Shown piece by piece: positions 22,385 through 26,014 of a stretch of 64,000 nt of DNA (the stretch's first letter is position 1; every line of letters starts with the position of its first letter). The position numbers were made by a program, and so were the translations under genes. The notes below the pieces were generated by a model, which ran no database searches, was not told where the DNA came from, and was given only the letters and a program-made list of their open reading frames with translations. This DNA comes from Actinocrinis sp. (GTDB lineage Bacteria; Actinomycetota; Actinomycetes; Streptomycetales; Catenulisporaceae), in NCBI RefSeq assembly GCF_035938995.1, contig NZ_DASZGI010000329.1, positions 54,535 to 118,534 on the forward strand, given 5' to 3'.

Positions 22385-23290
22385 TTATACGCGGTCCGCT
22401 GCGATCAATAGATAGTGGAAGCTGCCTTCGCGGTACGCGGTCAAGAAGGCCTCTTCGATACCCGTGGCCACCGAGGACTGCGCCCGCAGCTCCCAGTAGG
22501 GGATCGTCGCGGGCGTCAGGTCCAGTACGGTGATCGGCGTCAGGCCGTTGGCGGCCAGCGCGCGGAAGTAGGCGCTGCGCGGGTGGATGTTGCACGTGTA
22601 GTGCTCGTCTATCCGGCTTACCGCCTTGGACCGCAGGCCCGTGACGTCGTTGGAACACCCGGTGATGCAGACGTACCGGCCGCCGTGGGGGAGCAGCCGG
22701 GCGAATTCCGCGTAGAGCTCGTTCAGGTCGACGTACATCGTCGTCTCGTTGGTCCAGATGCCGCGCTTCGAGCCGGACTCGAATCCGGTGTCGAGCATGT
22801 TGCGGAAGTGGAAGCGCACCACGTCGCTCACGCCGCGCTCGACGGCCCGGTCGTTGGCGAAACCGGCCTGGTACTCGGAGATGGTGACCCCGTCGACGCG
22901 GCAGCCGAACCGGTAGTGCGCCATCAGGCTGGTGCCGCCGCGGCCGCAGCCCGCGTCGAGCAGCCGGTCGCCCGGTCCCACCACGCCGAGGTTGTCGAGC
23001 AGGACGTCGGCCTGCGCGCTCTCCAGCCGGTGCAGCTCCTCGATGATCCGCTGGTCGCGCTCGTCCGGCGACACTTCCAGGACGGCCGGGTCGTAGTCGC
23101 CGAGGCCGTAATGGTGGTGGTAGAACCCGTCCACCTCGCCGAGCCGCAGATTGACCGGGTCCTGCGTGTGCGTGTCCCAGTACTGCGCGACAGCCCGCTG
23201 ATACGCGGTGCGCAGCACCGGGGAGAGCTGAGACAGGGACTGCGTCACGGGCTGCGTCACGGGCTGCGTGTCGGGCGGGGACTGCGTCAT
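22385..23290 (-). CDS. geranyl diphosphate 2-C-methyltransferase (2-methylisoborneol pathway)
   Basis: 301 aa from ATG 23290. SAM motif LLDAGCGRGG. Recognisable along the whole length as a GPPMT (SCO7701-type): YWDTHT, FYHHHYG, IWTNETTMY. The start overlaps the MIB synthase stop (ATGA). Confidence 0.9.
   Translation of the reverse strand: MTQSPPDTQPVTQPVTQSLSQLSPVLRTAYQRAVAQYWDTHTQDPVNLRLGEVDGFYHHHYGLGDYDPAVLEVSPDERDQRIIEELHRLESAQADVLLDNLGVVGPGDRLLDAGCGRGGTSLMAHYRFGCRVDGVTISEYQAGFANDRAVERGVSDVVRFHFRNMLDTGFESGSKRGIWTNETTMYVDLNELYAEFARLLPHGGRYVCITGCSNDVTGLRSKAVSRIDEHYTCNIHPRSAYFRALAANGLTPITVLDLTPATIPYWELRAQSSVATGIEEAFLTAYREGSFHYLLIAADRV
23240..23275 (-). repeat. 12-bp tandem repeat (CTGCGTCACGGG x3, third copy degenerate) at the 5' end of the methyltransferase gene
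   Basis: Read directly from the sequence. It encodes TQPVTQPVTQS, and a fourth partial copy includes the ATG. Confidence 0.8.
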
Positions 23291-24522
23291 CGGGTCGACT
23301 CCTTTTCGCGGGCCGTCGCGTAGTGGGCGGTGGTGCGGTGCCATTCGTGGTTGCCGCCGAGCCAGGCCCACACCCCGGCCAGGAACCGAGCCAGCGCGGG
23401 CGAGCCGGCGGCGGCCAGCGCGGCGGCTTCATGCTCGTAGGTGCGGACCAGCTCGTCGTGCAGCGCTGCGGCGCGCCGCACTGCCTCGCCGGGCGAGCAC
23501 TGCTCCTCGGCGGCGATCAGCGTGGGCAGGTTGTAGTCGTACTGGGCGCCGCGCTGCTCCTTGCTCATCGAATACAGGTCGTTGACGAGCGTGGTGGCCA
23601 GGCCCGCCATCAGCACCGCCCGGCGCACCGGGGGAGCGCCGTACTCGGTCGCTGACAAGTGATAGCCGCCGACGACATCGATCACGGCGATGGTTGGCAT
23701 GAAGCTGTTCTGCTGGCGTTCGGCGAGGTACTGCCACACGGGTGGGACGAAGTCGGTGCGGCGCCAGGACCCCTCGGTGTTGTAGCCGTTGAACAGCGCG
23801 GCCAGTTCGAGACGCAGCCGGTCGACCTGTCCAGGGGTCGCGTACCGCGCGAGATGCCCGAGCGCGGAACCCAGCGCGACACGAACCGGGTCCTCGCGCA
23901 ACGCCGCGTCCAGCGCCGGCTGACGCTGCGCCCCGATCACCGGCGGATCGATAGTCGCGTACGCCAAGCCGAGCCGGGCGCCCAGCAGGTCGGGCCGGGC
24001 GCCCTCGGACTCGTCATCGCAGTACGCGTCGTCGGTAGCCCACTCGGCGAGCGCGCATTTGGCGGCGGCCAGCAGCCGGTCCGGGTCCTCGCTCTCGGGG
24101 TGGACGAGCATGATGAAGCGGCCGAAGTTCGCCTCCCGGACGTGGTCGAGGCTGTCCGGGTAGAGGCCGATCTCCTTGGCCCACGCGAGGAGCCGCTCGT
24201 TGACCAGCTCGCCGAGCGCCGGGTCGTCGCGCAGCGCGGGCGGGGAGTAGAGCTCGGGCACTGTTCCGTTCTGGCTGGCTCCGTTCTGCGCGGCCTGGTC
24301 AGGCTGCGCGCCGCCGGTGCCGGGCCGACCGAGCGGGGCGCGGTCGGCCCGAGGTGGAACGGGACGCAGCGACGAGGTGCCCAAGCCGCGCGGCCCGCCG
24401 AGGACCGGCTTCGCGGGCCGAAGTGAGGCCGGTGCCGAGGGCGGCGCGGCGAGCAGGGCGGCGGCCAGCGCGGCGGCTTCGTGCCGCGCGGGAGGCGCGG
24501 CCACACGGTTCAACAGGGACAT
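23287..24522 (-). CDS. 2-methylisoborneol synthase (class I terpene cyclase) with a disordered N-terminal extension
   Basis: 411 aa. Has the Asp-rich motif DDAYCDDE and the NSE triad NDLYSMSKE. The first 88 or so residues are an Ala/Pro/Gly/Arg-rich low-complexity tail. Confidence 0.9.
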   Translation of the reverse strand: MSLLNRVAAPPARHEAAALAAALLAAPPSAPASLRPAKPVLGGPRGLGTSSLRPVPPRADRAPLGRPGTGGAQPDQAAQNGASQNGTVPELYSPPALRDDPALGELVNERLLAWAKEIGLYPDSLDHVREANFGRFIMLVHPESEDPDRLLAAAKCALAEWATDDAYCDDESEGARPDLLGARLGLAYATIDPPVIGAQRQPALDAALREDPVRVALGSALGHLARYATPGQVDRLRLELAALFNGYNTEGSWRRTDFVPPVWQYLAERQQNSFMPTIAVIDVVGGYHLSATEYGAPPVRRAVLMAGLATTLVNDLYSMSKEQRGAQYDYNLPTLIAAEEQCSPGEAVRRAAALHDELVRTYEHEAAALAAAGSPALARFLAGVWAWLGGNHEWHRTTAHYATAREKESTR

Positions 24523-24595
24523 GGCGACCTGAAGTTCCTCTCCTGAAGATGAACGCCGTGCGCGAGCGCATCGGAACCTGCGTCAAGCGGCTGGA

Positions 24596-26014
24596 TCAAG
24601 ACCGCGGCCTGGAGATCTCCACGTTCTCGAGCACACCCAGCGCGTCCGGCACCAGCACGGCGGCCGAGAAGTACGTGGACACCAGGTAGGAGATGACGGC
24701 CTTCTCGTTGATCCCCATGAAGCGCACGTTGAGTCCGGGCTCGTACTCGTCGGGGATGCCGGTCTGGTGCAGGCCGACCACGCCCTGGTCGTCCTCGCCG
24801 GTGCGCAGGGCGAGGATCGAGGTGGTGTGCCCGTCGCCGACCGGGATCTTGCCGCAGGGGAAGATCGGCACGCCCCGCCAGGCGGGGATCCGGTGGCCCT
24901 CCTCGTCCGCGGAGCCGAAGTACAGGCCGCGGCTGTTGCACTCACGGCCGAACGCCGCGATCGCCTTGGGGTGGGCCAGCAAGAGCCGGGTGCCGCGGCG
25001 CATGCTCAGCAGCTCGTCCAGGTCGTCCGGCGTCGGTGGGCCGGAGTGGGTCTGGATGCGCTGGTCGTTGTCGGCGTTGTGCAGCAGGCCGAAGTCCGGG
25101 TTGTTGACCAGCTCCCACTCCTGGCGTTCGCGCAGCTCCTCGATGGTCAGCCGCAGCTGGTGCTCGGTCTGGTCCATCGGGTCGTTGTAGAGGTCCGCGA
25201 CCCGGCTGTGGATCCGCAGCACGGTCTGGGCCACGCTCAGCTCGTACTCGCGCGGTTCGACTTCGTAGTCCACGTAGGTGCCGGGCAGCTCGACCTCGCC
25301 GTCGTGGCCGGAGGCGAGTTCGACCGTATGCTCGCCGTGGCGGTTCGCCTGCTGCGTGTCGGTGAGGTACCGCATGACCGACTCGCGCAGCGCCTCGGAG
25401 CTGTCGAACAGCTCCTGGAACGCGCGCCAGGGCAGAACCAACAGCGTGCCCGCCGTGGCCGCCTTGACGGTGTAATCCCACCGCGCATCGGAGCGGCCCA
25501 GGGCCTCCTCGCCGATGTGGTCACCGTCGGCGGCGTAGCCGAGCACTGTGGTCTGTCCGTACTTGCCGGTGCCGACCTTGTTCACCTTGCCGTGGCCGAC
25601 CAGGTAGACCTCGTCGACCGGCCGGCCCTCCTCGACGATCACCTCGTCGGCGGCGACCTCGCGCGGGGTGAAGCGGGACGCCAGCGCTTCCAGCAGCGCG
25701 GCGTCGTCGACGCTGCGCAGCCCGGGCAGCTCGACGAGGGAAGGCGCGAAGACCCGCAGATCGGTGCCCGTCCGGAGGAAGCTGACCCGGCCGCTCCCGA
25801 TCGCGTAGCTGAGCCTCCGGTTGACCCGGTACGTGCCGCCCGACACCTGCACCCACGGCAGCTTGCGCAGCAGCCAGCGCGAGCTGATCCCCTGCATCTG
25901 GGGGGCGGACTTGGTGGTCGTCGCCAGATTCCGCGCCGCCGCGATGCTCAGGCTCTGCCGGGTCTGCTCGCTCGCCGGCCCCAGTCCGGACGGTTCGGGA
26001 ATCGTCGCTGTCAT
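24596..26014 (-). CDS. EshA-like cyclic-nucleotide-binding protein; Family 2B encapsulin shell protein type
   Basis: 472 aa from ATG 26014, with GGAGG 9 nt upstream. A cNMP-binding beta-barrel (about residues 95-215: [20 protein letters not shown]...) is embedded in a larger protein with no DNA-binding domain. It is the first gene of the MIB operon, as for SCO7699. Confidence 0.8.

Follow-up and report, generated by a model that had tools for sequence, protein, structure and literature searches.

Positions 22385-26014 of a 64,000-nt stretch of an Actinocrinis sp. genome (contig NZ_DASZGI010000329.1; the whole stretch is referred to below as the window) contain three intact, co-directional open reading frames (ORFs) on the minus strand, as read directly from the sequence. 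In transcriptional order, these are predicted to encode the shell protein of a Family 2B encapsulin, a class I terpene cyclase of the 2-methylisoborneol (2-MIB) synthase type, and an S-adenosylmethionine (SAM)-dependent geranyl diphosphate (GPP) 2-C-methyltransferase. Together they very probably form a Family 2B encapsulin operon with a single shell component, serving production of 2-MIB, a C11 homomonoterpene and musty soil odorant. The counterpart loci in Streptomyces coelicolor are SCO7699 (EshA), SCO7700 (2-MIB synthase) and SCO7701 (GPP methyltransferase). A first-pass annotation of the same DNA had described three co-directional genes with a 73-nt gap and a 4-nt ATGA overlap, and the coordinates and both junctions proved to be just so. 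The features are as follows, with cNMP for cyclic nucleotide monophosphate, CBD for the cNMP-binding-fold domain and CLD for cargo-loading domain:

26024..26028, minus strand: GGAGG ribosome-binding site, 9 nt 5' of the shell ATG (sequence)
24596..26014, minus strand: Family 2B encapsulin shell gene (EshA / Sg Enc orthologue type), 472 aa; ATG 26014, TGA 24596-24598; NF041163 and PDB matches
25400..25663, minus strand: cNMP-binding-fold insertion domain (CBD), shell residues 118-205; PF00027, Escherichia coli CAP match
25478..25480, minus strand: W179, corresponding to Sg Enc W176, at the site of the cAMP phosphate-binding Arg; residue register taken from the alignment with 9BHU
24611..25357, minus strand: HK97-like (SrpI-like) shell-forming domain, shell residues 220-468; PF19307, family 2A structure matches
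24523..24595, minus strand: 73-nt shell-cyclase spacer with the cyclase ribosome-binding site (AGGAGAGGA) (sequence)
23287..24522, minus strand: 2-MIB-synthase-type class I terpene cyclase, predicted cargo, 411 aa; ATG 24522, TGA 23287-23289
24265..24522, minus strand: Pro/Gly/Ala-rich N-terminal domain, cyclase residues 1-86; 51% Pro+Gly+Ala vs 30% in the catalytic domain
24367..24396, minus strand: CLD motif GPRGLGTSSL, cyclase residues 43-52; exact fit to GPxGxGTxxL (PMC8346489, PMC11550324)
24010..24033, minus strand: Asp-rich Mg2+-binding motif DDAYCDDE, cyclase residues 164-171; aligns with DDCYCED of SCO7700
23557..23583, minus strand: NSE-type Mg2+-binding motif NDLYSMSKE, cyclase residues 314-322; aligns with NDLYSYTKE of SCO7700
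23287..23290, minus strand: ATGA stop/start overlap of the cyclase TGA with the methyltransferase ATG (sequence)
22385..23290, minus strand: SAM-dependent GPP 2-C-methyltransferase gene, 301 aa; ATG 23290; NF041943 and PDB matches

The shell ORF has an alternative start, a TTG at 26095 upstream of ATG 26014, but the GGAGG at 26024-26028 supports the ATG, which is taken as the start codon; alignments with homologues start somewhere in the first 25 residues of this 472-aa version. Public gene calls on the Joint Genome Institute (JGI) metagenome contig Ga0372953_0000029 (191 kb) are identical, at 472, 411, and 301 aa. E-values in Pfam, NCBIfam, and PDB searches reach 1e-138 to 1e-224, far past chance, and because all three hidden Markov model matches are full length, none of the genes is a pseudogene. 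The ATGA overlap would couple translation of the cyclase and the methyltransferase.

HK97-fold proteins with a cNMP domain were classed as Family 2B encapsulins by Andreas and Giessen (2021; PMC8346489), the internal cNMP-binding-fold domain being what separates them from family 2A. The 472-aa protein reaches 744 bits with the corresponding model NF041163 (encap_f2b; cut-off 400), which it covers in full, from position 1 to 450; with the family 2A model NF041162 it scores 345 bits, under the 380-bit cut-off of that model. Pfam finds cNMP_binding (PF00027) at residues 118-205 (E 7e-16), N-terminal to an HK97-type domain, SrpI-like (PF19307), at residues 220-468 (E 2.2e-138, model positions 5-253 of 254). 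Among solved structures, the cryo-EM models of Streptomyces griseus EshA (Sg Enc; 9BHU, 9BHV, and 9BI0) match residues 19-468 (E 2.9e-183), and the S. lydicus shell components 9BIX and 9BJE match at E 1e-178 to 1e-181; the PDB identities of these five entries were checked. Family 2A structures, 6X8M and 8T6R among them, match residues 231-469 (E 1e-79 to 1e-88; SrpI 6X8M itself, 3e-82). At about 65% sequence similarity to the cryo-EM models, the protein should have an HK97-like fold, and this can be taken as settled because the match to solved cryo-EM structures is full length. A single-sequence AlphaFold2 model has a mean pLDDT of 32.7 and a pTM of 0.21, values too low for the model to be of use. 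The first-pass annotation had described a 472-aa protein with a cNMP barrel and no DNA-binding domain, and had assigned the EshA type to the HK97-fold Family 2B encapsulins. Both descriptions hold: PF00027 lies at 118-205 and there is no helix-turn-helix match, while NF041163, PF19307, and 9BHU agree with the literature (PMC8346489, PMC11550324) on the encapsulin assignment, and HK97-fold similarity was found via PF19307 and the solved shells 9BHU, 9BIX, 9BJE, 6X8M, and 8T6R.

Residue correspondences were taken from the 9BHU alignment, whose register reproduces the residue names of the S. griseus study (PMC11550324). By this register, L266, L287, F432, and Y443 of the window shell are L264, L285, F430, and Y441 of Sg Enc, which form the interior three-fold cargo-binding patch. 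For conservation, the window shell was aligned with 97 family 2B shells, whose sequences were obtained by translating 80 genomic loci (referred to below, where necessary, by L numbers). The four cargo-binding residues are kept in 94-97 of these 97 homologues. At columns conserved to at least 85%, the window shell is off consensus in 12 of 216, which places it 20th of 98 sequences in such departures, and it is therefore not an outlier. No second shell paralogue was found in the 64-kb window (Rfam and tblastn: one shell gene).

The cyclase matches NF041167 (f2_encap_cargo2), the model for family 2 encapsulin terpene-cyclase cargo, with 483 bits against a cut-off of 400, and PF19086 at E 5e-27; the S. 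coelicolor 2-MIB synthase structures (3V1X/3V1V) match at E 3e-70 with both Mg2+ motifs aligned. Its product is presumably 2-MIB, made from 2-methyl-GPP. The GPxGxGTxxL-type motif of its CLD is also found in the cargo genes of L003, L015, and L042, beside family 2B shells. The window cyclase and its closest 2-MIB synthase homologues (L003 and L015) have in common an N-terminal helix, SLLxRV...HExAxLxAALLA, and it groups with these two by this helix and by DDxYCDD; NDLYSMxKE is common to the window and L003. The motifs of SCO7700 type (DDCYCED and NDLYSYTKE) are those of L042 and L070, a group outside which the window cyclase falls. Physical encapsulation of the cyclase via the CLD is supported by the presence of the motif and by the four retained shell residues, and to this extent the earlier proposal of a compartmentalized odorant pathway gains support from homology.

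The methyltransferase reaches 505 bits with NF041943 (GPP methyltransferase; cut-off 400), covering the whole model from position 1 to 272, matches the GPP methyltransferase structures 4F84 (E 2.7e-106) and 3VC1 (E 1e-103), and carries the SAM-binding motif DAGCGRG at residues 112-118. Both enzyme names in the first-pass annotation are thus borne out, with curated, equivalog-level NCBIfam models over cut-off, solved structures, and, in the cyclase, DDAYCDDE and NDLYSMSKE. The N-terminal extension of the methyltransferase is 28 residues long, without a CLD motif, in keeping with its predicted action outside the shell, as in published assays.

Two repeats lie within these coding sequences. A 28-nt direct repeat (27 of 28 positions identical) occurs twice in the cyclase gene, in frame and 1050 nt apart, at 23407-23434 and 24457-24484; the two copies specify HEAAALAAA, one within the N-terminal cargo-loading helix (residues 14-22) and the other within a C-terminal helix (residues 364-372). 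Micro-duplication or gene conversion could account for them, as could chance, the sequence being rich in Ala and GC. The methyltransferase gene has near its 5' end a 12-nt tandem repeat (ACGCAGCCCGTG, about 2.5 copies, 23240-23269, minus strand) that yields PVTQPVTQ in the N-terminal extension.

The 2021 survey listed 904 terpene-cyclase operons, many with C-methyltransferases and 2-MIB-synthase-like cyclases carrying GPTGLGT in a disordered N-terminal region (PMC8346489). [quoted passage not shown] The window operon is most like this S. griseus shell/2-MIB synthase/methyltransferase operon (Andreas and Giessen, Nat Commun 2024, PMC11550324): it has three genes of identical kind and order; one family 2B shell, of 472 rather than 470 aa; the DARW pocket with its Trp and the four CLD-binding residues; a cargo with a Pro/Gly/Ala-rich N-terminal CLD carrying GPxGxGTxxL; and a methyltransferase without a CLD. 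It differs in the sub-group motifs of its cyclase (DDAYCDDE and NDLYSMSKE), in having S74 and S92 in a putative metal-binding subdomain of the shell and Q117P, G123D, and A140G in the CBD, and in its unrelated neighbors (GH79, enolase-superfamily, and sugar ABC genes).

Other known systems resemble it in part. The S. coelicolor proteins (3V1V/3V1X; 3VC1/3VC2) are the same pathway enzymes (cyclase E 3e-70, methyltransferase E 1e-103, Mg2+ motifs aligned), but the cyclase there has DDCYCED and NDLYSYTKE, and its CLD is unrelated save for the short motif. S. lydicus Sl-Enc1/Enc2 (9BJE, 9BIX; PMC11071501) and the Myxococcus xanthus geosmin encapsulin (bioRxiv 10.64898/2026.07.21.739788) belong to the same family of shells, sharing its fold and carrying CBD-fold domains on the outside, and the M. 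xanthus cargo is likewise a terpene cyclase, loaded there by GPxGLGT-type peptides; both, however, have two shell paralogues in mixed shells where the window operon has one shell gene, and both have other cargo and other loading-peptide positions. Family 2A shells (Synechococcus elongatus SrpI, 6X8M; Acinetobacter; mycobacterial MMP-I) share the SrpI-type domain and the three-fold CLD site but not the cNMP-fold insertion, and have cysteine desulfurase cargo and closed two-fold pores. The cyanobacterial cnbA-mtf-mtc-cnbB clusters (PMC12159092) encode the same pathway, with family 2B-type "Cnb" genes flanking those for methyltransferase and cyclase; they differ in having two Cnb genes, another gene order, and another phylum. 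The Cnb proteins have been associated with intracellular compartments and 2-MIB retention (PMC12159092).

If the window operon works as its S. griseus counterpart does, 60 copies of the 472-aa protein would self-assemble via the HK97-like domain into a T=1 icosahedral shell of about 29 nm, with the cNMP-fold domains placed outside, around large two-fold pores. The cyclase would be captured during assembly, its Pro/Gly/Ala-rich domain of about 86 residues (with GPRGLGTSSL) binding the three-fold patch L266, L287, F432, and Y443. The methyltransferase would remain cytosolic, converting GPP and SAM to 2-methyl-GPP, which would diffuse in through the pores; the encapsulated Mg2+-dependent class I cyclase (DDAYCDDE, NDLYSMSKE) would then convert it to 2-MIB, which would exit. 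The cNMP-fold domain is most likely not a cAMP sensor.

The evidence on that domain comes from the fold and from its pocket. The fold itself is genuine: beyond the Pfam match, BLASTP of the shell against E. coli CAP gives 24% identity (E 4e-08). Sequence-only alignments (to CAP and to cGMP-dependent protein kinase, PKG) conflict on the register of the phosphate-binding cassette, but homology to structure gives W179, equivalent to the W176 that occupies the site of the phosphate-binding Arg in the Sg Enc structure (PMC11550324). The DARW pocket sequence is common to the window shell and Sg Enc. This Trp is invariant in 97 of 97 homologues; the preceding residue, R178, may be T, V, R, or D among the same 97 and is therefore no conserved ligand contact. 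Off-consensus residues of the window shell within the cNMP fold include Q117P, G123D (which removes the first of the fold's conserved Gly residues), and A140G, which might indicate a ligand specificity different from that of Sg Enc, or a lost one. In the putative metal-binding subdomain, Ser or Thr replaces several of the acidic residues that Sg Enc has (S74, S92), and loss of the subdomain was considered on this account, but invariant E95 and conserved D104 are retained. The text of the S. griseus study does not name the metal-ligand residues (PMC11550324).

Several points weigh against the interpretation as an encapsulated 2-MIB operon. For this copy, shell assembly, cargo loading, and product are all inferred from the characterized S. 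griseus orthologue. Just six of the 80 closest shell loci have a 2-MIB-synthase-type cyclase within 5 kb, so that shell similarity alone does not predict cargo; for the window, the prediction comes from the adjacency of shell and cyclase together with the CLD. Cargo loading in S. griseus is better with the GPxGxGTxxL segment but does not strictly depend on it (PMC11550324), which makes the motif supportive rather than decisive. The departures at Q117P, G123D, and A140G in the cNMP-fold domain count on the same side, as does the similarity of the cyclase to characterized 2-MIB synthases, just about 50%. The least certain part is the exact product, since related enzymes acting on 2-methyl-GPP give 2-methylenebornane and further C11 terpenes (PMC5908152), and sequence does not here separate 2-MIB synthases from 2-methylenebornane synthases. 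The same encapsulin operon might thus have another C11 homomonoterpene as its main product, for example 2-methylenebornane or a 2-methylbornene-type mixture: cyclases of this substrate include 2-methylenebornane synthases and have many C11 by-products (PMC5908152), the window enzyme belongs to the DDxYCDD/NDLYSMxKE sub-group rather than with the SCO7700-type enzymes of L042 and L070, and NF041167 is named for a "terpene cyclase cargo" only. Set against these are the best solved-structure matches, which are 2-MIB synthases, the equivalog-level GPP methyltransferase next door, and a 723-cluster survey that counts all such actinobacterial shell/cyclase/methyltransferase clusters as 2-MIB (PMC11550324), so that another product is a minor possibility, if not a negligible one. 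The historical EshA annotation, still in some databases, would instead make the 472-aa protein a Crp/Fnr-type, cNMP-responsive transcription factor controlling the two terpene genes. The label persists in the PDB, where depositors' molecule names read "Crp/Fnr family transcriptional regulator," and a CRP model, NF008732, does match weakly (E 1e-05), but with 25 bits this is far under its cut-off of 266; no helix-turn-helix family is found on the protein at E ≤ 0.01, the C-terminal 250 residues are an HK97-like capsid domain, and homologues have been solved as 60-mer shells, by which the idea was already refuted for the orthologue. The Pfam result (a SrpI-like C-terminal half) and the NCBIfam scores exclude a transcription factor for practical purposes, and this reading is almost certainly wrong.

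Two further proposals leave the architecture of the encapsulin operon as it is and add a control to it. [quoted passage not shown] The cNMP_binding fold (PF00027, E 7e-16; CAP, E 4e-08) is in its favor, the sequence-only PKG alignment sets R178 opposite the phosphate-binding Arg, and the family 2B literature cited here includes no cGMP test. Sg Enc, however, which is 65% similar and has the same DARW, bound no cAMP in differential scanning fluorimetry (DSF), on cAMP-agarose, or by cryo-EM at 20 mM cAMP, and cAMP left its cargo activity, shell thermal stability, and shell structure unchanged (PMC11550324); with a Trp in place of the expected Arg and invariant in all 97 homologues, R178 variable, and the first conserved Gly of the fold missing in the window (G123D), the proposal does not stand up well. 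The null cAMP data and W179 remove cAMP gating as a likely mechanism, and gating by either nucleotide is very improbable. The other proposal is a cis-antisense RNA. Rfam RF02735, Sernc350 ("Saccharopolyspora sRNA 350"), matches the plus strand at 25464-25971, antisense to the 5' third of the shell gene, with 118 bits against a gathering threshold of 50, and the family derives from a predicted antisense transcript to the Saccharopolyspora erythraea orthologue SACE_3976 that was detected by sequencing and quantitative reverse-transcription PCR (qRT-PCR; PMC3827479). An RNA from this strand could conceivably regulate expression of the shell gene. The model, however, also has antisense-strand matches in every family 2B shell gene tested elsewhere (17 genes in 13 other loci, second paralogues included), and thus appears to recognize conserved coding sequence; neither strand at the match folds better than shuffled controls (z = -0.95 and -0.74), and no promoter-like site was found. 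With every shell gene matched and no excess folding energy, the match was rejected as independent evidence of an RNA gene, and such regulation is distinctly unlikely here.

There is also the idea that the external domain binds some small molecule other than a cNMP, which switches the two-fold pores and so gates odorant synthesis; this is doubtful rather than implausible. The question of a pore-switching ligand belongs to the whole shell family and is not specific to the window locus, and in family 2B shells "cNMP-binding" is a fold label, not a function.

For the encapsulin operon itself, the closest relatives among 185,579 species genomes have shells 74% identical to that of the window (Streptomyces silvisoli and Kitasatospora humi), followed by others from Kitasatospora, Streptacidiphilus, and Actinocrinis; the window cyclase is about 50-55% identical to its relatives. 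The shell relationships point to an uncultured, high-GC actinomycete as host, probably one close to the Streptomycetaceae. The shell-cyclase-methyltransferase order recurs in L003, L015, L070, and L076, with shell-methyltransferase-cyclase in L042. Other shell loci have stop-to-stop ORFs of about 750-1,090 codons with GPTGLGTSAARI once or twice, as described for geosmin-synthase-type cargo, and yet others lack a motif-bearing neighbor. In the K. humi locus (L004, NZ_JAJJPA010000011.1, 2518-4856), the 74% shell homologue is followed by a GPP methyltransferase gene, also 74% identical; a search of the whole 8.9 kb with a threshold as loose as E ≤ 1 gave no 2-MIB-synthase-type cyclase. The arrangement resembles a shell and methyltransferase operon that lost, or never had, its cargo gene. 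Two family 2B shell paralogues, the two-component type, are present in L049, L078, L059, L082, and L052. Such two-shell loci include cyanobacterial metagenome-assembled genomes and strains (Nostoc, Tychonema), whose shells are about 62% identical to that of the window, consistent with horizontal spread of the system.

Little was found by way of regulatory elements. The 73-nt spacer between shell and cyclase genes has no unusual RNA structure (z = +1.7), and structure there was accordingly rejected as an explanation of shell-to-cargo stoichiometry. Where an intrinsic terminator might be expected, 3' of the methyltransferase gene, there is just a 7-bp hairpin (TGTTCAC cgtt GTGAACA) with no T-run (fold z = 0.32); the sole terminator-like site, at 26628-26640, is upstream of the operon and at chance level. 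A promoter consensus scan found none. The upstream region (26015-26640) is about 600 nt long, and the 400 nt next to the shell gene are AT-richer (GC 0.58), with small palindromes. At about 26127-26155 on the minus strand is a palindrome between direct repeats, TTACTCAGAG-TCACTTTGTGA-TTACTGAG, a possible operator; by visual inspection, these upstream elements are not conserved 5' of the shell genes in L003, L015, L042, L070, and L076. The public contig has two small ORFs upstream of the shell gene, of 62 aa (minus strand, 26726-26914) and 132 aa (plus strand, 26307-26705). The stop-to-stop frame holding the first (26729-27016) has no Pfam match, and the public record lists none for either.

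Genes flanking the operon are unrelated to terpene metabolism. They encode a GH79-like hydrolase, an acyl-CoA dehydrogenase, an enolase-superfamily enzyme, a GntR/LacI-type regulator, a sugar ABC transporter, and proteins of nitrate/nitrite assimilation; isoprenoid-precursor genes were looked for in the 64-kb window and none was found. The nitrate/nitrite assimilation block, at 5018-13213, includes a NirB-like nitrite reductase on the minus strand, a uroporphyrinogen-III synthase (HemD) with a fused winged-helix DNA-binding domain of OmpR type, and a 1428-aa fusion of a molybdopterin nitrate reductase with flavodoxin, FAD, and NAD reductase domains. Regulators cluster at 35960-40719 and 45047-47380, namely a SARP/BTAD activator, a ChW-repeat protein, an NB-ARC/LuxR STAND regulator, and a STAND protein of 1063 codons with helix-turn-helix, NB-ARC, and TPR domains. 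Third-position GC is lower there than elsewhere in the window.

The prediction of 2021 that 2-MIB biosynthesis is encapsulated was borne out structurally and biochemically in 2024, and curated NCBI models now name all three proteins. The system being already published, the window copy is an ordinary example of it, and nothing in it departs from the known kind. What the external domain binds and what is gained by caging a volatile-terpene cyclase are questions for the family as a whole; in this regard the cyanobacterial study suggests intracellular retention of 2-MIB (PMC12159092) and the geosmin encapsulin study cargo stabilization and regulation by pore state (bioRxiv 10.64898/2026.07.21.739788); the window locus does not make these more testable. 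What it contributes is a further divergent shell sequence, at most 74% identical to any in a species-representative genome, for alignments of the family.

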